Shown here piece by piece: positions 16,825-49,338 of a stretch of 64,000 bases of DNA. How positions within the stretch are numbered: the stretch's first letter is position 1; each line of letters starts with the position of its first letter. The DNA is from Candidatus Lloydbacteria bacterium RIFCSPHIGHO2_02_FULL_50_18 (GTDB lineage Bacteria > Patescibacteriota > Minisyncoccia > Phycocordibacterales > UBA6899). The stretch is taken from assembly GCA_001821395.1 (NCBI GenBank), contig MHLM01000001.1, positions 138,840-202,839 of the forward strand. Direction: 5' to 3'. Made by a program: the position numbers and the translations under genes. Below the pieces are notes generated by a model. It was not told the origin of the DNA. It ran no database searches and saw only the letters and a list, made by a program, of their open reading frames with translations.

Positions 16825-18924
16825 CTAAATAGCACCACTCTTACATTGCTTACATAAGTCACGTACATTCTCGGGAACATAATCACACGACGGTGCGAGT
16901 TTGAAATTCTCGCAGACATTTGCGGGCATTCCGCCACCCGACGCGCCAGCAGGAGGCATCATACCGGTCGGAATTCCTGCGGGAAGCTCTCCGCTCTTTG
17001 GAACTCCCTCGGGACGATAACCTGCTTCGGGGATGCCCTCCTTAGGAATACCCGCTGGCATTCCGGCAGGTCTAAAACTCTGCATGCACTCAGCGATAAA
17101 CGGCTGTACGTCTTCCGGTCCTCGTATTGTAGAAACATCACCGATCTTCGACTTGATACAGTCACGCATTTCCGCTGGCGCCTGCTCGAGCATCTTATCC
17201 ATTATTGCAGTCGCATTAGCCGCACATGATTGAAATGCATTCCCCATGTCGGGAGAAAGCTCGATGCCGTCTCCATTCATGATCTTTTCTACGACATCTT
17301 TTCCAAGTTTCTCTTCGATACATGCGCGCATTTCCGGCGGCATCTTCTCAAGACCTTCGCGCGCCTGTTGCATTCCGCTCTCACGCATGGACTCAAAACA
17401 CTTTCTCACGATATCTCCGCTTTGCGCATCCATTTCCCCACCCGAAAGCATCTTATCGAGCCCGCTCGACCCAAGCCCTTTTTCGATACAGGCTTTTGCC
17501 TCGGGTGTTGCGATATCCATCGCTGCACTTATCTTTTCTTTTATCTTAGGCATCATATCTGCCATGCAACCCTTGATCAACTGACCCATATTTTGTGTGG
17601 GCATGAACGTACCTTCTGATATCTTTGCCAGCGCTTCTTCTCCTAATTTTTCCTTTAGGCATACACGCGCTTCTTCAGGAAGCTGCGGCAAACCGGCACG
17701 CAATTGACCCATTCCATCTTTGATCTCTTTCAATTGCTCGGCTGGAATGAGGCCATACTTTTCGGCAAACTTAAAACATTCTTCCTGGTGCGACGTATCA
17801 TTACAATACGCCTCACAAGTTTCACGAGAACGGCACCCACCGGGACCCTCTCCGCCGGTCTTCCTCGCCATCTCGGCATCTTCCTTTGAAATGAGCCCTG
17901 CTTTCTCGGCGAAGTTCACACATTCATCGGCATGATCACTTTCGGAACAATATGCTTCACAAAGCGCTTTTGTTGTGCACTTTCCGGGAGTTTCACCCGA
18001 CTTCATAAATGGGAGTACTCTGCGCGACTCTGCGACATCTTTTGGATCAATGAACCCTGCTTTCTCGGCAAACGTGAGACATTCATCAGCATGGGTCGTA
18101 TCAGCGCAATATGATTCACATGATTTTTTGTCTGTGCAGCCACCCGGAAGCGTCGCGCCTTCTGCAAGTACTCTGGATATCCGTTTCGCGTCCTGCAATA
18201 CATCTTTCGGTATCAGGTTGTGTCGTTCTGCAAATAAGAGGCATTCATCCAAATGCGCGACTCCATTGCAGTACGCCTCGCATGTTTTTTGGTCCTTACA
18301 TGCACCGGGACCGTCTCCTCGGAGAACATCGGCAAACTCCCTCGCGCGAGCAGCCTCTTCCTTTGAGATCATGCCATTTTCTTCCGCATAATCCGTACAC
18401 GCTACGATGTGCGCCTTGTCATCACAGTACGTCTTGCAGGACGACTGGTCCTTACAATTTCCGAGCTTAGTGATGGGAAATTTATTCTTCTCAGTTTCCG
18501 ATCGCTGCAGATGCCCGACCGCACCAAACACACTATCGGTCACGACACCGTCATTGGTGAACGTATACACGCGCCCCCACAAATTCAACCTCATATCATC
18601 GGGACGCTGCGTCTGATACGAAGTGGAATATATCCCTTTTGTACCCTCGTTGAAACCACTGACGCTCCAGTTCATGTCGGCGGCAGTGTATCGAATCGTA
18701 TATATTTTTCCTGCCATGAGCGTTCCCATGGGGTCGCTCGAACCCTTCCAGCCGGAATCATCAAAATTGGCTGTATCAAAATTCACGTAAAATGTTTTTC
18801 CCGACTTGATGTACGACTGCCATGGCCCGAGTTCGGGTGCCGCAAACGCAACGATCACCGAGCTCATGAATATTCCCGCACAAACGATCAGCACTGCAAT
18901 GTGTCCTGCGAGCACATTCTTCAT
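16825..18924 (-). CDS. secreted cysteine-rich repeat protein (five tandem Cx5-6Cx3Cx7-8C...ECxxFAEKxGLI modules, then helical Cys-containing repeats)
   Basis: Signal peptide MKNVLAGHIAVLIVCAGIFMSSVIVAFAAPE, N-terminal beta-rich region, then repeats GxCKDQxxCExYCxxxxHxxECxxFAEKxGLIxxxD. Tracker ORF extends upstream to 19107; start at 18924 (alternative 18939) preferred. Confidence 0.6.
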   Translation of the reverse strand: MKNVLAGHIAVLIVCAGIFMSSVIVAFAAPELGPWQSYIKSGKTFYVNFDTANFDDSGWKGSSDPMGTLMAGKIYTIRYTAADMNWSVSGFNEGTKGIYSTSYQTQRPDDMRLNLWGRVYTFTNDGVVTDSVFGAVGHLQRSETEKNKFPITKLGNCKDQSSCKTYCDDKAHIVACTDYAEENGMISKEEAARAREFADVLRGDGPGACKDQKTCEAYCNGVAHLDECLLFAERHNLIPKDVLQDAKRISRVLAEGATLPGGCTDKKSCESYCADTTHADECLTFAEKAGFIDPKDVAESRRVLPFMKSGETPGKCTTKALCEAYCSESDHADECVNFAEKAGLISKEDAEMARKTGGEGPGGCRSRETCEAYCNDTSHQEECFKFAEKYGLIPAEQLKEIKDGMGQLRAGLPQLPEEARVCLKEKLGEEALAKISEGTFMPTQNMGQLIKGCMADMMPKIKEKISAAMDIATPEAKACIEKGLGSSGLDKMLSGGEMDAQSGDIVRKCFESMRESGMQQAREGLEKMPPEMRACIEEKLGKDVVEKIMNGDGIELSPDMGNAFQSCAANATAIMDKMLEQAPAEMRDCIKSKIGDVSTIRGPEDVQPFIAECMQSFRPAGMPAGIPKEGIPEAGYRPEGVPKSGELPAGIPTGMMPPAGASGGGMPANVCENFKLAPSCDYVPENVRDLCKQCKSGAI

Positions 18925-18943
18925 GTGAAAATTTTTCATATCG

Positions 18944-19231
18944 CTAGAAAGGATTCTGATAAGTGTCGGTATACGGATTGACCGTTTTTTCGAACGGATT
19001 CGTATCAGGCATCTTTTCGACTGGATTGGATGCACCAGTTTTTTGATAAATATCTCCACCAAAAGATTCGGCGGGTACCGCCTCTGCCGGTGTGGCATTT
19101 GTATCACTTCCTGATAATGTGTTGTCGGTCCCCTTTTGAGAAGTACCGAAATAAAACCAAAACATAAACCCTAAAATGACGGCGAACACGAGCGCGGCAA
19201 GCGCAAGTAGTACATTTTTTTTCATGATCAA
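18944..19231 (-). CDS. small secreted or membrane-anchored hypothetical protein
   Basis: MIMKKNVLLALAALVFAVILGF signal anchor. A8 tract within codons 4-6. Confidence 0.4.
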   Translation of the reverse strand: MIMKKNVLLALAALVFAVILGFMFWFYFGTSQKGTDNTLSGSDTNATPAEAVPAESFGGDIYQKTGASNPVEKMPDTNPFEKTVNPYTDTYQNPF

Positions 19232-29136: not shown

Positions 29137-29217
29137 GCCCGGGTGGTGAAATGGTATACACAGGAGACTTAAAATCTCCCGTCGCAAGGCATGTGGGTTC
29201 GACTCCCACCCCGGGCA
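29137..29217 (+). tRNA. tRNA-Leu (anticodon TAA)
   Basis: Acceptor GCCCGGG/CCCGGGC, anticodon loop CTTAAAA, long variable arm, T arm TGGGTTCGACTCCCA. Confidence 0.85.
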
Positions 29218-29218
29218 C

Positions 29219-29254
29219 AAAGTAAATAAATCCCTGATGGGATTTATTTACTTT
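29219..29254 (+). terminator. intrinsic terminator after tRNA-Leu(TAA)
   Basis: AAAGTAAATAAATCCCTGATGGGATTTATTTACTTT. Confidence 0.65.
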
Positions 29255-29400
29255 GTGCCCGGGAGAAAGCAAGCTGCCTTGCTTTCGCGTGGGAGTCGAA
29301 GCCCGTTTCGTTATTTGCGAAGAATTCCTATTCTGAGAAAATCGAAATGGGGTGCTGACCCAGCAAAGATCGAACCTCCCACGTTAATAGTGTAAAATGA
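29255..29400. repeat. tRNA-Leu(TAA)-flanking miniature element
   Basis: GTGCCCGGG (antisense acceptor), CTGC-loop hairpin 29264..29285, TGGGAGTCGAA (antisense T arm), conserved GAATTCCTATTCTGA...GGGGTGCTGAC module, terminal sense T-arm-like TCGAACCTCCCAC. Confidence 0.6.
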
Positions 29401-29804: not shown

Positions 29805-29880
29805 GCCTTCGTAGCTCAGTTGGTAGAGCAGCTCGCTCTTAACGAGACGGTCGCAGGTTCGAATCCTGCCGGGGGCACCA
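29805..29880 (+). tRNA. tRNA-Lys (anticodon CTT), CCA encoded
   Basis: Acceptor GCCTTCG/CGGGGGC, anticodon loop CTCTTAA, T arm GCAGGTTCGAATCCTGC. Confidence 0.85.
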
Positions 29881-29912
29881 TAAAAAAATCCGCGACAAGC
29901 GGATTTTTTTAT
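29881..29912 (+). terminator. intrinsic terminator after tRNA-Lys
   Basis: AAAAAAATCCGCGACAAGCGGATTTTTTT. Confidence 0.7.
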
Positions 29913-30050
29913 GGTGCCCCCGAAGAAGTGCCCTGCGGCACTTCTGGCAGGATTCGAAGCCGTTCTCCCATATTTCTGAATGATTCATATCATGAGGAAA
30001 TGGGAAACGGGTACTGACGCAGTAGGCGTCGAAACTCCTGCCGTGAGATT
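29913..30050. repeat. tRNA-Lys-flanking miniature element
   Basis: TGGTGCCCCCG (antisense 3' end including CCA), CTGC hairpin (GAAGTGCCCTGCGGCACTTC), GGCAGGATTCGAA (antisense T arm), GCCGTTCTCCCATATTTCTGA...GGTACTGACGCAGTAGGCGTCGAAACTCCTGCC. Confidence 0.6.
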
Positions 30051-30250
30051 TCAAAAGACTGAGTATATTTCGCATGCCTGCGCATGCAGGTCTTCAAAAT
30101 ACGAAACCCAACATGCAGAGCTTGTCTTCGTGTCCCCAATGGCATCGGTGTGATTTCGCACTTGCGAACAAGTCTATGAGAACCCAACTGATGTCGGTTT
30201 ATTCTTCCACTTCCCTTTTATCCAAATTCCAGTACTATAGCCCTACACCC

Positions 30251-30332
30251 TGCCCAGGTGGCGTAATTGGTAGCCGCGCCAGTCTTAGGAACTGGTCTCG
30301 CAAGAGGTGGAGGTTCAAGTCCTCTCCTGGGC
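30251..30332 (+). tRNA. tRNA-Leu (anticodon TAG)
   Basis: Acceptor GCCCAGG/CCTGGGC, anticodon loop CTTAGGA, long variable arm, T arm GAGGTTCAAGTCCTC. Confidence 0.85.
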
Positions 30333-30334
30333 AC

Positions 30335-30362
30335 AAAGAAAACCGCGTAAGCGGTTTTTGTG
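30335..30362 (+). terminator. intrinsic terminator after tRNA-Leu(TAG)
   Basis: AAAGAAAACCGCGTAAGCGGTTTTTGT. Confidence 0.65.
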
Positions 30363-30560
30363 TGCCCAGAGCGACTGAATACTACAAAGAGTACTTCATT
30401 TTTCTAAAGCAGAATACTGCTAAGAAAAATTGGTCGCACCACAGAGAGTACTTCATTTTTCTAGAGCAGAATACTGCTAAGAAAAATTGGTCGCTGCTTC
30501 AGTCGCGCGAGAGGACTTGAAGCCGTTCTCCTGTATTTTTGAAGATTTCTTAATCTGACA
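30363..30560. repeat. tRNA-Leu(TAG)-flanking element whose internal hairpin is expanded by a 50-bp unit present twice in tandem
   Basis: TGTGCCCAGAG (antisense acceptor). Inverted repeat GCGACTGAA/TTCAGTCGC flanks two copies of AGAGTACTTCATTTTTCTA(A/G)AGCAGAATACTGCTAAGAAAAATTGGTCGC. Then GAGAGGACTTGAA (antisense T arm) and GCCGTTCTCCTGTATTTTTGA. Confidence 0.6.
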
Positions 30561-37464: not shown

Positions 37465-37492
37465 TAAAAAACAAAGTATTCAGACCTACGCC

Positions 37493-37849
37493 CTAAATAG
37501 GAACAGTTGTTTGAATAGTAGGCGCGGTACCCAGTCCGCCGAGCGGTGCAAGTCCCAATTCTGTTTGGATGAATCCGATGATCGACCAGAGCGCTACAAT
37601 CACAAAAATACCCACCATGCCCCATACGAGAAACATCCTCCCCTCCTGCACCGCCTTCTCATCATCGGCATGCCAAATGAATTTTACGACACCCCAAAAA
37701 AATACCGCAACCGCACAACCCAACAGTACGGGCATGATGGTCTGCATGAGATTAATGAGATCATCCATGATGGTGATCACCGACGTCTGAGCAAGTGCAA
37801 ATGTTGGTAAGAAAAAAAACGTACCGAGAATAAAAGATCGTTTAGACAT
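37493..37849 (-). CDS. VirB2/TrbC-like pilin paralog 1 (subfamily B)
   Basis: Sec signal peptide (FALAQTSV). Two-helix hairpin with FFWGVVKFIWHADDEKAVQEGR loop motif. Confidence 0.6.
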   Translation of the reverse strand: MSKRSFILGTFFFLPTFALAQTSVITIMDDLINLMQTIMPVLLGCAVAVFFWGVVKFIWHADDEKAVQEGRMFLVWGMVGIFVIVALWSIIGFIQTELGLAPLGGLGTAPTIQTTVPI

Positions 37850-38162
37850 AATTCATCAGCGTCATATCGCCGCCTATTGAGCTAATAAGGAATCGCATGA
37901 TACCAAACACGGCAACCATGATGAACATGCCAATGATACCCCATATCATACCGAGACGCCCCTTATCGCGCATCTCCGCATTATCCGGATTCCAGATATA
38001 CGCGACCACTCCGTAGATAAAATAGACGGTCGCGAGTGCAAAGAGCAAAGCGATGATAGGATTCAAAATATACGTCGAGATGTTGCCGACGAAAGTGAGC
38101 ACCGATGCGGGAATCGGGGGCGCAGCTGCTTCTGCTACGCTTGGAAAAAAAATGTTTAACAT
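37842..38162 (-). CDS. VirB2/TrbC-like pilin paralog 2 (subfamily B)
   Basis: Start at MLNIFFPSVAEAAAPP (tracker ORF is extended upstream). Motif YFIYGVVAYIWNPDNAEMRDKGR. Confidence 0.55.
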   Translation of the reverse strand: MLNIFFPSVAEAAAPPIPASVLTFVGNISTYILNPIIALLFALATVYFIYGVVAYIWNPDNAEMRDKGRLGMIWGIIGMFIMVAVFGIMRFLISSIGGDMTLMNYV

Positions 38163-38211
38163 GAATAAATTATAGCATCTCAATAAAAATTGACTATCCG
38201 AATGAGCAAAC

Positions 38212-38245
38212 AAAAACCCCCGAGAACATTCTCGGGGGGTTTTTG
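38212..38245. terminator. intrinsic-terminator-like hairpin inside the pilin array (between paralogs 3 and 2)
   Basis: AAAAACCCCCGAGAACATTCTCGGGGGGTTTTTG. Confidence 0.55.
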
Positions 38246-38265
38246 TAATCCTATTTTTATCAGGA

Positions 38266-38622
38266 CTAGACTCCAGGAACAGCAAATGCTGGTGGTGTTG
38301 ACGTGGTTATTGTCCCAGTCAATCCAAGCTGAGTCTGAGCCCAACCAAGAATACCCCAGAGAGCGACCATGACAAAGATCGCAACCATACCCCAGATCAT
38401 AAGCGTCTTACCCTGCTCCTTTGCGGCTTCATCGCTTGCATTAGCGATATATTTGACCAAGCCCCAAAAGAACGCAACGACCGCAAGACCCATGAGTAAT
38501 GGGATCAAAAGCGAGATAATACCCTGAACGCTGTTTACGAGATCGGCGATACCGGTGAGCACGGTTGCTGCAGAAGCAACTGCGGGACCCACAAGCATCA
38601 TTCCGATGATAAATTTCTTCAT
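38266..38622 (-). CDS. VirB2/TrbC-like pilin paralog 3 (subfamily B)
   Basis: Start at MKKFIIGMMLVGPAVASAATV. Motif FFWGLVKYIANASDEAAKEQGK. Confidence 0.6.
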   Translation of the reverse strand: MKKFIIGMMLVGPAVASAATVLTGIADLVNSVQGIISLLIPLLMGLAVVAFFWGLVKYIANASDEAAKEQGKTLMIWGMVAIFVMVALWGILGWAQTQLGLTGTITTSTPPAFAVPGV

Positions 38623-38796
38623 AGATTTGATAATAATTAATAAATACACCGCCAAAACTATAACTTAATGCTATCGCACAAACCGATGTCAAGCAATAGA
38701 AAAAAAAGATACCTGTGGATTACTGTTTCCGTTACCCGGAATCACAAAAATCGACCTCTTCACATGCCTGATGATCATATTTTTGTACGATAAGAG

Positions 38797-39159
38797 CTAA
38801 TGGATGCCGCCAGTCGAATCCACATAATCCGGTGCGCCTCCCGGCATAATCCCAAATGTATCAACAAGAAGAATTCGCACTATTCCCCATACGGAGAAGA
38901 GCACGACGAACGCGATAATCCCCCAAATGATGAATTGCTTTCCTTTTTCACGTTCAACGGGATCGTTCGCATTACCGATAAATTTTACGACGCCCCAGAA
39001 AAAGAACATGATGGCAGCGATCCAGAAAAATTGTCCGGCCTTCACCAAAATATTGTAGACAAGCACCTCGAGGTCAAAGACGTCCGTGACTTGCGCGAAA
39101 ACAAGGGATGGAGTGCCAAGAAGCGTCGCAATACCGAACTGTTTGTTTATTGTTCTCAT
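38797..39159 (-). CDS. VirB2/TrbC-like pilin paralog 4 (subfamily B)
   Basis: Signal peptide (SLVFAQVTD). Motif FFWGVVKFIGNANDPVEREKGK. Confidence 0.6.
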   Translation of the reverse strand: MRTINKQFGIATLLGTPSLVFAQVTDVFDLEVLVYNILVKAGQFFWIAAIMFFFWGVVKFIGNANDPVEREKGKQFIIWGIIAFVVLFSVWGIVRILLVDTFGIMPGGAPDYVDSTGGIH

Positions 39160-39174
39160 GAAAATAAAAAATAA

Positions 39175-39519
39175 TTATGAGGGCGTACTCAAAAAAGGAA
39201 TACCGAACGAACCTCCAAAGAGTGTTGAATTCAAGATACCGATGAGTCCCCACATCCCAAGCACAACCGCGATACCGATGATGGCCCACAGCAGATAGGG
39301 CTTGATCTCTTCGCGCCTTTTCTCATTATCTGAATTCATCATATAGAGCGCGATACCATATACGAGTCCGGCGATAAGCGCGGCAAAGAAAATGGAGATA
39401 ATGTTCTTTAAGACTCCCAAGAGCAACTCGACGAAACTCTTGAAGTCCGTCGGCGTAGTAGCGGCAAAAGTAATAAGGGGGGAACAGAAGACTAGCGTCG
39501 CAAAGATGAATTTTTTCAT
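39175..39519 (-). CDS. VirB2/TrbC-like pilin paralog 5 (subfamily B, divergent)
   Basis: Start at MKKFIFATLVFCSPLITFAATTP. Motif LVYGIALYMMNSDNEKRREEIKP. Confidence 0.55.
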   Translation of the reverse strand: MKKFIFATLVFCSPLITFAATTPTDFKSFVELLLGVLKNIISIFFAALIAGLVYGIALYMMNSDNEKRREEIKPYLLWAIIGIAVVLGMWGLIGILNSTLFGGSFGIPFLSTPS

Positions 39520-39526
39520 ATACATA

Positions 39527-39865
39527 TTAAAATAATATCGCCGTACCATATACCATGTCTGCGATGACTTTTGCACCAAGGATAATGAGCCCGCCAACGA
39601 GTGTCCACGTGAGCCAGATCTTCGCCTTCGTCACCTGCGCTTCATCCCCCCCCGCGGTGACGAACTGAAAACCAGCATAAATAATACAGCACGCGAGCGC
39701 GGGTATGCCGACCAGCTGCATGATCTCGATCAGCCAATAGATAAAATCCTGAAGCGTAAGAATTGAGGGAGCCGGATTTGATAGCAGTGTCCATGATGCA
39801 GCAAGTGAAATTCTTGGTTGCGAGAGGGTGAGTGTGGCGAAAGATACTAAGGCTGTTTTTTTCAT
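39527..39865 (-). CDS. VirB2/TrbC-like pilin paralog 6 (subfamily A; closest to the canonical Gram-positive T4SS pilin motif)
   Basis: IYAGFQFVTAGGDEAQVTKAKIWLTWTLVGGLIILGAKVIA. Confidence 0.6.
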   Translation of the reverse strand: MKKTALVSFATLTLSQPRISLAASWTLLSNPAPSILTLQDFIYWLIEIMQLVGIPALACCIIYAGFQFVTAGGDEAQVTKAKIWLTWTLVGGLIILGAKVIADMVYGTAILF

Positions 39866-39884
39866 AAAGGTATTGGGATTCAGA

Positions 39885-40244
39885 TCACAATGAGCTAATA
39901 GTCGCCTGTATCGCTGCGGCGATCACTTTCGCACCGAGCAGCACGAGTGCCCCCAACAGTGTCCACTTGAAGGTGGTACGAGCCTTCGCAATCTGCGCCT
40001 CATTGTCCCCCGCGGTCACAAAGAGAAATCCGCCATAAATGATGAACATCACAATAATGGGCACTCCGATAAGAAAAACGAGGTCGACGATAGCGAGCAG
40101 GAGATCGGGAATAGAGGTAATCCCACCGTAAGTGATCGGGTTTACATAGCTTGACGAAGCAGCAGACGCCGTATGCGTACCCATTAAAAGTCCGAGCGTT
40201 GTCAGGTTTAATGGTTTTGTTATGTAGTGTTGCATAAGTATCAT
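39885..40244 (-). CDS. VirB2/TrbC-like pilin paralog 7 (subfamily A)
   Basis: IYGGFLFVTAGDNEAQIAKARTTFKWTLLGALVLLGAKVIAAAIQ. Start at MILMQHYITKPLNL chosen. Confidence 0.55.
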   Translation of the reverse strand: MILMQHYITKPLNLTTLGLLMGTHTASAASSSYVNPITYGGITSIPDLLLAIVDLVFLIGVPIIVMFIIYGGFLFVTAGDNEAQIAKARTTFKWTLLGALVLLGAKVIAAAIQATISSL

Positions 40245-40248
40245 GAAT

Positions 40249-40722
40249 TTATGGCCCCAAGAAATTAAATGACGATCCGGTACCAAGGAAGAATTCGAGG
40301 ATGAAATTAACAGTCACCCACGCCGCAAGTGCGATAATGAGTCCCCAGAACACATTCAAGAAAACGTCGTGCGCCTGTTTGACTTGGCCTTCATTGCCAC
40401 GATTGGTCACGTAGAGAAAACCGGCATAGGCGAACATGACCGCACCCAATGGTGCTGCGATCTTGAAAATGAGGAAATTGATCACATTCTGCGCAGTCTC
40501 GATCACGTCGTTAAAATAACATTCCTCATGATTACCCGGGGTGGTAGCATTTGATGCCCAGACCAAGGGGCTCGGATCTTTGACCGCACCGTCTCCATTA
40601 ATGTCAAATCCGCAAGGAATGATCGTTGACGGTGAAGCTGCGAATACAGAGAATGGGGTCACGAGTATCAAAACACCGAGGAATATCGCAGAAACAAATC
40701 GATGAGTGACACTGTTGTGCAT
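40249..40722 (-). CDS. VirB2/TrbC-like pilin paralog 8 (subfamily A, with an extra Cys-containing N-terminal extracellular segment)
   Basis: FAYAGFLYVTNRGNEGQVKQAHDVFLNVFWGLIIALAAWV. Signal peptide VFAASPS. Confidence 0.6.
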   Translation of the reverse strand: MHNSVTHRFVSAIFLGVLILVTPFSVFAASPSTIIPCGFDINGDGAVKDPSPLVWASNATTPGNHEECYFNDVIETAQNVINFLIFKIAAPLGAVMFAYAGFLYVTNRGNEGQVKQAHDVFLNVFWGLIIALAAWVTVNFILEFFLGTGSSFNFLGP

Positions 40723-49289: not shown

Positions 49290-49338
49290 AAAACACCACC
49301 CACTTGGCCTGCCTGCGCAGGCAGGGTGGTGTTTTCGT
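49290..49338 (+). terminator. intrinsic terminator after rpsA
   Basis: AAAACACCACCCACTTGGCCTGCCTGCGCAGGCAGGGTGGTGTTTTCG. Confidence 0.65.

Follow-up and report, generated by a model that had tools for sequence, protein, structure and literature searches.

A CTGC-loop hairpin marks a widespread, apparently uncatalogued element that mirrors tRNA 3' ends

Along a stretch of 64,000 nucleotides of a reduced CPR genome (the whole stretch analysed, hereafter the window), hairpins with differing stems close again and again on the same loop, CTGC. A preliminary description had listed nine of them, singling out the one at 29265-29286 (given there as 29264..29285), and had proposed that they are the hallmark of recurrent elements and carry a loop recognised by a protein or the ribosome. 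What, then, are these hairpins part of, and what keeps their loop? All nine do exist, with small shifts in coordinates and with that near 54290 being weaker, and they do characterise recurrent elements, as a hallmark module that is associated with the 3' ends of tRNA genes. As detailed below, the CTGC hairpin marks a widespread tRNA-mirroring element that seems to be absent from current catalogues.

The CTGC hairpins and the element around them

When the + strand of the window was scanned mechanically for loops of 4 nt enclosed by perfect stems of 6 bp or more, 43 hairpins were obtained, and in eight of these the loop is CTGC (Table 1). In 200 first-order Markov shuffles of the window CTGC hairpins averaged 0.055 with a maximum of 1, and no single loop of any sequence exceeded 3 copies, so that within the window the hairpins are enriched over shuffled sequence, a comparison which the preliminary description had suggested for the whole genome. 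The complementary loop, GCAG, was found only once, which indicates strand specificity. The hairpin at 10889-10910 likewise exists, and is absent from the perfect-stem scan because its closing pair is T.G; the one at 49307-49322 had been missed before. The long stem at 62377-62428 encloses the hairpin reported at 62398-62411.

It could be argued that these are plain intrinsic terminators, or that the loop is favoured by chance in this genome. Three of them, at 7408, 49290-49335 and 62377-62428, do come after genes or units and have T-rich runs behind them (loosely so for 7408-7429), and they can be used as terminators. However, the five hairpins that adjoin tRNA genes continue into G(Y)G and an antisense segment, a*, with no T run, CTGC dominates homologous hairpins in unrelated phyla, and the excess over shuffled sequence is large. 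We therefore consider this explanation scarcely credible, and for the copies named P0 below it is already refuted by position and conservation. Thus, the earlier statement that the hairpins are not simple terminators is borne out by the five, and the statement that most of them lack a U tract applies to these five and fails for the other three.

The five hairpins, starting at 10889, 29265, 29924, 61520 and 62274, represent a single module, P0, which is the side arm of a non-coding element of 110-190 nt located at tRNA gene 3' ends. Read on the tRNA-sense strand, the order of a type-1 unit is tRNA, connecting/terminator hairpin, b*, GA, P0, G(Y)G, a*, P2, (G)TAC.G, P3 and a'(b'). The connecting hairpin is palindromic and usually has a T run. 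The segment b* is antisense to the acceptor 3' strand (plus trailer), and a*, of 12-13 nt, is the reverse complement of the T-stem 3' strand and T-loop; such antisense copies of the neighbouring tRNA 3' end on both hairpin flanks had escaped the preliminary description. P0 has a 9-bp stem with the base G[CAT]AAG/CTT[GTA]C (first pair G-C), four variable top pairs and a 4-nt loop that is usually CTGC. P2 is a long hairpin and P3 a short one with a GTA triloop, the two separated by an invariant TAC.G, and a'b' repeats the tRNA 3' end in direct orientation from a point within the T-loop onwards, b' being present only in some cases. A second body type consists of an AGCA hairpin, CGAG..GGGGTCGCGA, a further hairpin and T.GTGACC, followed by a'b'; in the window it occurs after tRNA-Trp, after the Val-cac unit and behind topA. 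The AGCA loops at 7459-7478 and 62440-62461 are the first hairpin of this type-2 body. Both loops described earlier as AGCA variants do therefore exist (the first had been placed at 7446..7465, about 13 nt off), but they belong to a separate module.

In the folded unit a* pairs with a' and b* with b', and the helix that closes the resulting junction reproduces the acceptor/T-stem stack of the adjacent tRNA. The branch point of P0 corresponds to the nt 65/66 junction of the antisense tRNA copy: the most frequent last position of a* is nt 65 (42 of 80 units) and the most frequent first position of b* is nt 66 (34 of 60), which puts P0 at the point from which, in a tRNA, the D and anticodon domains branch off the acceptor/T stack. 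P0 together with a three-way junction closed by a*:a' was obtained in 8/8 units folded, with z between -3.7 and -6.7 (RNA fold of -45.6 kcal/mol and z -4.6 for the Leu(caa) unit; z -5.7, -6.7 and -5.8 for Leu(taa), Lys(ctt) and Val(gac), respectively).

The window contains nine tRNA genes, and eight carry units, the sole exception being tRNA-Cys. Units are found on both strands, always in the orientation of their tRNA, and they are often arranged in tandem, and also occur as truncated copies. The flanks of the hairpin at 30072-30087 resemble 62490-62550. Among the other genes of the window are those for a 501-aa IF-2 and for DprA, and an array of T4SS_pilin genes, a content that points to a CPR/Patescibacteria genome of the kind recovered only from metagenomes.

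Table 1. Positions in the window of CTGC hairpins, units and their parts (a slash within a motif marks the putative insertion point)
Feature	Positions	Strand	Parts and remarks
CTGC hairpins with perfect stems	7408-7429, 29265-29286, 29924-29945, 30072-30087, 49307-49322, 61520-61541, 62274-62293, 62377-62428	+	
topA 3'-end unit	7326..7607	+	insertion-like site GGTAC/GAAAAC 7324-7335; topA 3' end (74 nt) 7330-7403; CTGC hairpin 7408-7429; guide-like antisense 7430-7446; type-2 body 7447-7532 (AGCA hairpin 7459-7478)
Second topA 3'-end copy	7534-7607	+	diverged, 77% identity; repeat family D8
tRNA-Leu(caa) unit, type 1	10841..11005	+	tRNA 10759-10840; connecting/terminator hairpin 10841-10877; b* 10878-10887; P0 (CTGC) 10889-10910; a* 10911-10924; P2 10925-10974; TACTG+P3 10975-10995; a' 10996-11005
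Second Leu(caa) unit	~11050-11165	+	truncated
tRNA-Trp unit, type 2	14545..14714	-	tRNA 14715-14786; terminator pairs with tRNA 3' end; no CTGC hairpin; type-2 body, GGTACTG, 18-nt copy of tRNA 3' end
tRNA-Tyr units	16510..16760	+	tRNA 16423-16509; P0 with GAA triloop, not CTGC, 16559-16573; a* 16574-16587; a' 16663-16675
Second tRNA-Tyr unit	from ~16690	+	truncated
tRNA-Leu(taa) unit, type 1	29219..29383	+	tRNA 29137-29218; palindromic terminator 29219-29253; b* 29254-29263; P0 (CTGC) 29265-29286; a* 29287-29300; P2 29301-29352; P3 region 29353-29369; a' 29370-29383
tRNA-Lys(ctt) unit, type 1	29881..30043	+	tRNA 29805-29880; terminator 29881-29911; b* 29912-29922; P0 (CTGC) 29924-29945; a* 29946-29958; P2 29959-30010; GTACTG+P3 30011-30030; a' 30031-30043
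Decayed unit after Lys unit	30072..30087	+	GCATGC-CTGC-GCATGC, tip of degenerate P2-like hairpin
tRNA-Leu(tag) unit	30335..30560	+	tRNA 30252-30334; expanded arm in place of P0, 2 x 57-nt tandem repeat 30381-30494; a* ~30509-30523; body cut off by converging gene; repeat family D10
Terminator of S1-domain protein gene	49290-49335	+	CTGC loop, inner stem 49307-49322; no element after it
Intergenic hairpin	54296-54314	+	GGGCTC-TCCTGCG-GAGCCC; 6-bp stem, 7-nt loop containing CTGC; outside any element
tRNA-Val(gac) unit, type 1	61480..61636	+	tRNA 61406-61479; b* 61508-61518; P0 (CTGC) 61520-61541; a* 61542-61556; P2 61557-61606; P3 region 61607-61627; a' 61628-61636
Second Val(gac) unit	~61660-61790	+	5'-truncated; ends in full a'b' copy
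tRNA-Val(cac) unit, type 1	62269..62379	+	tRNA 62192-62268, unit directly behind it; no terminator, no b*; P0 (CTGC) 62274-62293; a* 62294-62307; P2 62308-62346; P3 62347-62362; repeat family D16
Copy of tRNA 3' end in Val(cac) unit	62362-62379	+	18-nt direct copy
Hairpin and type-2 body after Val(cac) unit	62377..62600	+	24-bp CTGC hairpin 62377-62428; type-2 body 62429-62515 (AGCA hairpin 62440-62461; CGAGTCGGGGTCGCG...TGTGACC); then P2/P3 remnant and third tRNA-Val 3' end copy ~62575-62597

The unit at the topA 3' end lies behind a protein gene, of which the last 74 nt are duplicated. The duplication starts at GGTAC/GAAAAC, which resembles the T-loop GGTTC/GAATCC, and the 17 nt at 7430-7446 are antisense to this site, matching it at 14/16 positions with one gap, a score equalled by 1.7% of random windows. 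Since this antisense match comes directly after the CTGC hairpin 7408-7429, that hairpin is probably also a P0, at a non-tRNA target, an assignment that depends on one modestly significant match.

Direct repeats, arms and stems at tRNA 3' ends

The direct repeats of the units are perfect, measure 18-20 nt or longer and always begin at T-loop nt 55-57, so that a block of identity extends from the T-loop to the tRNA 3' end, as in integrase-borne islands that target tRNA genes. Examples are GAATCCTCCAGGGTGCAC, with two copies in the window, and CAAGTCCCACCTGGCCCACA, with two copies at the locus of a relative. The left edge of the repeats is fixed and the right edge variable; the right junction lies always directly after (G)GTTC of the T-loop, hairpins are present, and there is a copy of the target on both sides.

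Tyrosine integrases that target T-loops classically leave repeats of this extent. Therefore, it must be considered that the units are attL/attR scars of integrase islands or prophages that have since been deleted, and the targets seen here (tRNA-Ser, Tyr and Asn, and tmRNA-like ones) are typical of such islands. Integrase attL/attR pairs and CIMEs also share with the element the tRNA left intact through a replacement 3' end and the accretion in tandem. However, the element as a whole amounts to 90-190 nt of conserved hairpins; the 90-170 nt between the repeats form a conserved covarying structure common to several phyla and include an inverted copy of the target, which is foreign to att arms; arm-type sites are lacking, hairpins alone lie between the tRNA-derived repeats (44-370 nt apart), and neither integrase gene nor cargo was found between the repeats or beside them. 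We regard a scar origin as very unlikely, and it is already close to refuted.

The comparison of syntenic loci in relatives, which were found via RbfA homologues, revealed that their units sit behind the same tRNAs and differ in bodies and loops. At tRNA-Leu(taa), the locus L078 has the loop CGGC and a perfect 20-nt direct repeat, and L081 has tandem type-2 units flanked by three copies of the T-loop-to-3'-end block GACTCCCACCTCGGGCAC; at tRNA-Lys, the P0 loop is TCGG in L081 and CTGC in L084. The T-stem of the orthologous tRNA-Lys reads cctGc, cctAc or cctCc in three genomes, and a* and a' follow it in each, while P2 belongs to a different subfamily in all three. In turn, one P2 subfamily (repeat family D2) recurs in the window at Lys, Tyr, Leu-tag and Val-gac, and the a* that accompanies it is different at each of them. 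As the arms follow the T-stem while P2 changes, the arms must be derived from the local tRNA or kept matched to it, and the bodies are exchangeable. The number of units also differs between sister assemblies, which could result from unequal crossing-over or from assembly collapse; such copy-number differences were the only ones found, and no clean pair of an empty and a filled site was seen between near-identical genomes.

Taken with the repeats, these data lead us to tentatively favour a non-autonomous, strand-specific repeat element that colonises GGTTC/GAA T-loop sites and has P0 as a handle recognised in trans, an interpretation to which we give somewhat less than an even chance. Insertion would be duplicative and would occur just 3' of the invariant GGTTC of T-loops, or of look-alikes such as the topA GGTAC/GAA. 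The element would bring a replacement for the 3' end of the gene, so that the tRNA would stay intact; the antisense arms a* and b* would match the element to its target; and P0, conserved in its loop and covarying in its stem, would be read by a trans-acting factor encoded elsewhere. This interpretation is based on the fixed left and variable right edges of the repeats, the tandem and truncated copies, the swapping of bodies, the topA site, and mismatch spectra that look unfiltered. We counted against it that a functional RNA would explain the tRNA-like topology at nt 65/66 and the invariant junction letters just as well, that a linked mobility gene is lacking, that no clean pair of empty and filled sites was seen, that the antisense match at topA is of modest significance, and that CTGC is absent from ~45% of homologous hairpins.

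In an alignment of 44 type-1 units, covering P0, two P2 segments and P3, compensatory double changes were observed at 27/27 pairs, and 93.8% of the cells are paired. Shuffles give 62.7%, and shifting the partners by a few columns gives 28-47%. Neither TAC.G nor the GTA triloop of P3 varies in these units, the triloop being closed by T-A and in three cases by C-G. Of 57 units, 51 give a better fold for the tRNA-sense strand than for the complementary one (p = 1e-9). Wobble pairs hardly occur and are no more frequent than A.C mismatches. Such a pattern would be unusual in a selected RNA, and is compatible with DNA hairpins or with arms that were copied from one another. Stable DNA mini-hairpins classically have GNA triloops (GTA, GAA, GCA). 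Given the scarcity of wobble pairs and these DNA-type triloops, the folded strand may be either RNA or DNA. A kissing contact between the P0 loop (CUGC) and the P3 loop (GUAG/GUAA) was considered and rejected, as P3 stays GTA whatever the loop of P0.

As the main rival explanation, the units could give rise to a functional trailer RNA with tRNA-like features, which would be co-transcribed with the tRNA or arise by read-through and be freed by tRNA-processing enzymes. The segments b*-P0-a*...a'-b' would then form a minihelix with the acceptor plus T stack of the cognate tRNA, in which P0 replaces the D and anticodon arms and CTGC is a structural or protein-binding loop. Such an RNA would account for the placement of P0 exactly at nt 65/66 with 1-2 junction nucleotides, the strong covariation in every stem, the invariance of the single-stranded TAC.G and GTA and the preference for the sense strand. 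It also agrees with the lack of a terminator between tRNA and element in the Val-cac unit of the window and at the loci L209 and L219, with the presence of units behind nearly every tRNA of a reduced CPR genome, and with the lack of linked mobility genes. On the other hand, a terminator-like hairpin with a T run precedes most units, wobble pairs are rare as stated, and many copies are truncated, tandem or decayed. Moreover, b* also pairs with the unprocessed trailer (ACA, not CCA), so that this end is not tRNA-like, body types are swapped between orthologous loci, and the same architecture is found at the 3' end of a protein gene. We consider a trailer RNA possible, although rather unlikely. 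It must be taken into account that the repeat element and the trailer RNA are not mutually exclusive.

Linked genes and comparison with known systems

The preliminary description had suggested that the loop may be recognised by a hairpin-binding HUH transposase (TnpA or RAYT) or a resolvase. This suggestion found no support: Pfam annotation of the genes in the window revealed no transposase (IS200/IS605 TnpA and RAYT included), resolvase, integrase or reverse transcriptase, and all-against-all clustering of the ORFs within ~4 kb of >230 element-bearing loci of genomes and metagenomes returned only housekeeping families, with no recurring mobility gene. A PATE- or REP-like element moved as single-stranded DNA by an HUH Y1 transposase (IS200/IS605 TnpA or RAYT) encoded elsewhere appears improbable. 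It would be in line with the strand-specific hairpins and the many non-coding copies per genome, which are shared with IS200/IS605 ends, PATEs and REP/BIME-RAYT systems, with insertion 3' of a fixed short motif (GTTC), and with the near-perfect Watson-Crick stems and GNA triloops typical of stable DNA hairpins. In IS608 ends, guide sequences flank the hairpin foot; similarly, guide-like sequences flank the foot of P0, and IS200/IS605-type elements have short sequences there that pair with the cleavage or target site. However, the guides of the element measure 10-13 nt each and stand on both sides of the hairpin, a sense copy of the target accompanies them, and the targets are tRNA T-loops, whereas IS200/IS605 elements have neither a target copy nor guides of that length. 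The element also lacks the REP signature GTAG-palindrome, no Y1/Y2 transposase gene was found in the window or recurring among the >230 loci, no autonomous copy with the same ends was seen, and a range including CPR, Betaproteobacteria and Elusimicrobia would require a conserved clade of enzymes.

At the gathering score Rfam 15 returned only tRNAs, in the window and in 18 carrier loci, and at permissive thresholds it gave no meaningful match in the window, the CPR relatives or the proteobacterial carriers. A phage or plasmid origin was rejected, since all pattern matches in viral contigs were by chance and without the hairpin, and BLAST of one proteobacterial unit against plasmids, phages and E. 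coli genomes returned no match. Such an element is not described in the full-text literature searched, which is absence of evidence within that collection. A hammerhead, HDV-like or other ribozyme was discarded because the core letters do not fit and Rfam gives no match: in place of the hammerhead core (CUGANGA...GAAA...UH) the junction is GUACUG followed by P3, and the GAA after P3 is part of the T-loop copy, units at TTCAAGT loops having none. Group I introns of Patescibacteria tRNAs have been located at anticodon-loop position 35/36 (bioRxiv 10.1101/2025.07.03.662931). An intron in the T-loop, or a group I intron in the tRNA, was rejected as an explanation of the units, as the upstream tRNA is intact and the downstream copy often has insertions.

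Some other systems show partial similarity to the element. Integron attC sites and the attP(+) of CTX phage are also imperfect hairpins made from two inverted copies of a site, with a one-strand feature marking the active strand and arrays growing at one site. However, the element has no R/L box consensus, no IntI or Xer site and no linked integrase, and it mimics a tRNA segment instead of dif or attI; compared with the attC boxes (RYYYAAC/GTTRRRY), the T-loop GTTCGAA deviates, the stems are essentially perfect and there is no intI. The antisense tRNA 3' end (element nt 54-76) recalls the primer-binding sites of retroviruses (nt 59-76) and LTR elements, and the sense copy in cis that is able to pair with it recalls the self-primer of Tf1. 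A primer-binding site for mature tRNA was rejected because b* matches the genomic trailer (ACA), not CCA; in addition, a hairpin interrupts the site and reverse transcriptase is lacking. The tRNA-like domain of tmRNA, the YrlA Y RNAs and viral tRNA-like structures likewise have an acceptor/T-stem-like closing helix with a side arm and are located with tRNA genes, but the element gives no match in Rfam, a paired extension and the body stand in place of its T-loop, and its helix is copied from the adjacent tRNA instead of following a fixed family consensus. As to the bridge or seek RNAs of IS110/IS1111, in which two internal loops bear the target and donor guides, the element differs in having no DEDD recombinase gene, in its side hairpin and three-way junction, and in that both of its arms are antisense to the same strand.

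Distribution across phyla and constraint on the loop

A scan of genomes (one per species) for a common T-loop with its antisense 65-95 nt downstream identified at least 119 loci. Among the matches listed, canonical P0 units come from many CPR classes, from Elusimicrobia, and from Polaromonas, Duganella, Massilia and Noviherbaspirillum. Most of the tRNAs concerned are Ser and Tyr, with Asn, Gln, Pro, Val, Lys, Ile and Thr also represented, and in about half of the matches the tRNA 3' end is repeated after a further 44-370 nt. A second scan, of metagenomes, in which the P0 base and a* were fixed and the upper stem and loop left free, gave at least 120 loci, with 117 distinct matches listed. The free positions form a hairpin in 107 of these 117, and 59 of the 107 hairpins listed (55%) have the CTGC loop, on 18 different upper stems, no other loop being present in more than 5 copies. 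Position by position, the loop identity among the listed matches is C 83%, T 79%, G 79% and C 74%, and the free pairs of the upper stem are Watson-Crick in 399/412 cases, with several pair types at each position.

The stem thus covaries while the CTGC loop is held, and the loop is not obligatory. The earlier remark that stems vary and the loop is constant holds far outside the window, with the reservation that ~45% of the homologous hairpins have another loop. The proposal of a recognised loop is partly sustained: a loop under constraint on a covarying stem fits some factor that reads it.

It is tempting to consider these units as a new class of element, spread over several phyla, whose arms are rewritten from the tRNA gene or T-loop-like site that it occupies, which needs no protein encoded by the element and has P0 with CTGC as universal handle; we put this forward with considerable doubt. 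Such a class could take the form of a self-templating 'tRNA-mirror' mobile element driven by host enzymes, or of a family of tRNA-specific minihelix RNAs derived from trailers. If so, nearly every tRNA gene in some reduced CPR genomes, and many tRNA-Ser and tRNA-Tyr genes of Betaproteobacteria and Elusimicrobia, would drag along a conserved structured element missing from the catalogues of RNAs and mobile elements. The coexistence of antisense and sense copies of the target suggests a programmable, nucleic-acid-guided choice of site without a linked enzyme, which bears on how tRNA genes become recombination hot spots and on the search for new systems of guided recombination or tRNA mimicry. 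Genome annotation is also concerned, as the units are now mis-called as small ORFs or left as blank spacers, and a 22-nt hairpin with a defined loop provides a concrete and testable handle.

Among the 117 listed metagenome matches, 80 have a called tRNA in the same orientation no more than 100 nt upstream, and several others lie behind tRNAs containing group I introns or inside arrays. Some upstream tRNAs were missed by ARAGORN because of a group I intron inside them; that in the upstream tRNA of the locus L224 was the only such Rfam-type find.

The type-2 body and variation within units

Besides the type 1 body of the units (non-coding modules 3' of tRNA genes), there is a second conserved body, type 2, which is common to CPR and Betaproteobacteria. 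It consists, in this order, of an AGCA/AGTA hairpin, CGAG..GGGGTCGCGA, a variable hairpin and T.GTGACC, and it directly adjoins the T-loop copy. Its stem shows covariation, pairing as GGTCGC/GTGACC versus GCCTGC/GTAGGC, the latter in the Oxalobacteraceae units.

In two units, the position of P0 (the hairpin between the two antisense segments) is taken by a far bigger arm made of a 57-nt module, present as two tandem copies in the unit of the window, and insertions are evidently tolerated at the P0 apex. Downstream of the GTA-triloop hairpin P3, an insertion is often present in a' (the T-loop copy) immediately after GAA; it is AC or AT in the units of the window and a 14-nt mini-hairpin, AAGCGTACTCGCGG, in many metagenome units.

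Positions of the features described (window coordinates unless a locus from another genome or metagenome, L-number, is given)
Feature	Position or loci	Remark
Type-2 body	7447-7532; 62429-62515
Type-2 body	14545-14676	minus strand
Type-2 body, degenerate	10620-10700
Type-2 body, other loci	L099, L205, L090, L116, L185, L217, L247
Enlarged P0 arm	30361-30508; L008 884-968
Insertion in a' after GAA	L227, L236, L241, L273, L278, L180, L187	downstream of P3
Final 74 nt of topA, two copies	7330-7403; 7534-7607
Copy of tRNA-Leu(caa) 5' end	10543-10568
Group I intron	L224 10842-11139
T4SS_pilin array	37490-40720
760-aa ORF	16825-19107	minus strand
Internal repeats of this ORF	17746-18456

The topA and tRNA-Leu(caa) sites

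The unit inserted at topA is flanked by two copies of the final 74 nt of the gene, with 77% identity. As the topA 3' end is duplicated around the unit, the present terminus of the gene is the proximal copy.

The 5' end of tRNA-Leu(caa) recurs as a 26-nt copy 216 nt upstream of it. The interval holds a type-2 body in degenerate form, along with a stretch that is antisense to nt 24-33 of the tRNA. This arrangement may be a mirror-image case, with insertion on the 5' side.

Interrupted tRNAs and possibly related loci

ARAGORN called no tRNA upstream of the L224 unit because this tRNA is interrupted by a group I intron, in line with the tRNA introns reported in Patescibacteria. The tRNA upstream of the L213 unit probably contains such an intron as well.

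In nine Clostridia/Treponema loci (L087, L093, L104, L120, L173, L186, L188, L189 and L196), there is an antisense T-loop downstream of the tRNA, and the 3' end of the tRNA recurs there as a direct repeat. These loci lack P0 and have instead a hairpin whose conserved loop reads C(C/T)GGTGG; they may represent a sister family. In haloarchaeal MAGs (L096, L179, L193) the tRNA 3' end is directly repeated over 22 nt, about 50 nt past GGATTCGAAG; a relationship to the bacterial elements is possible.

Host genome features

An array of small genes matching the T4SS_pilin family (PF18895), together with a 501-aa IF-2, marks the window as belonging to a CPR-type genome. A 760-aa ORF, to which no function was assigned, contains diverged internal repeats of ~150 nt.
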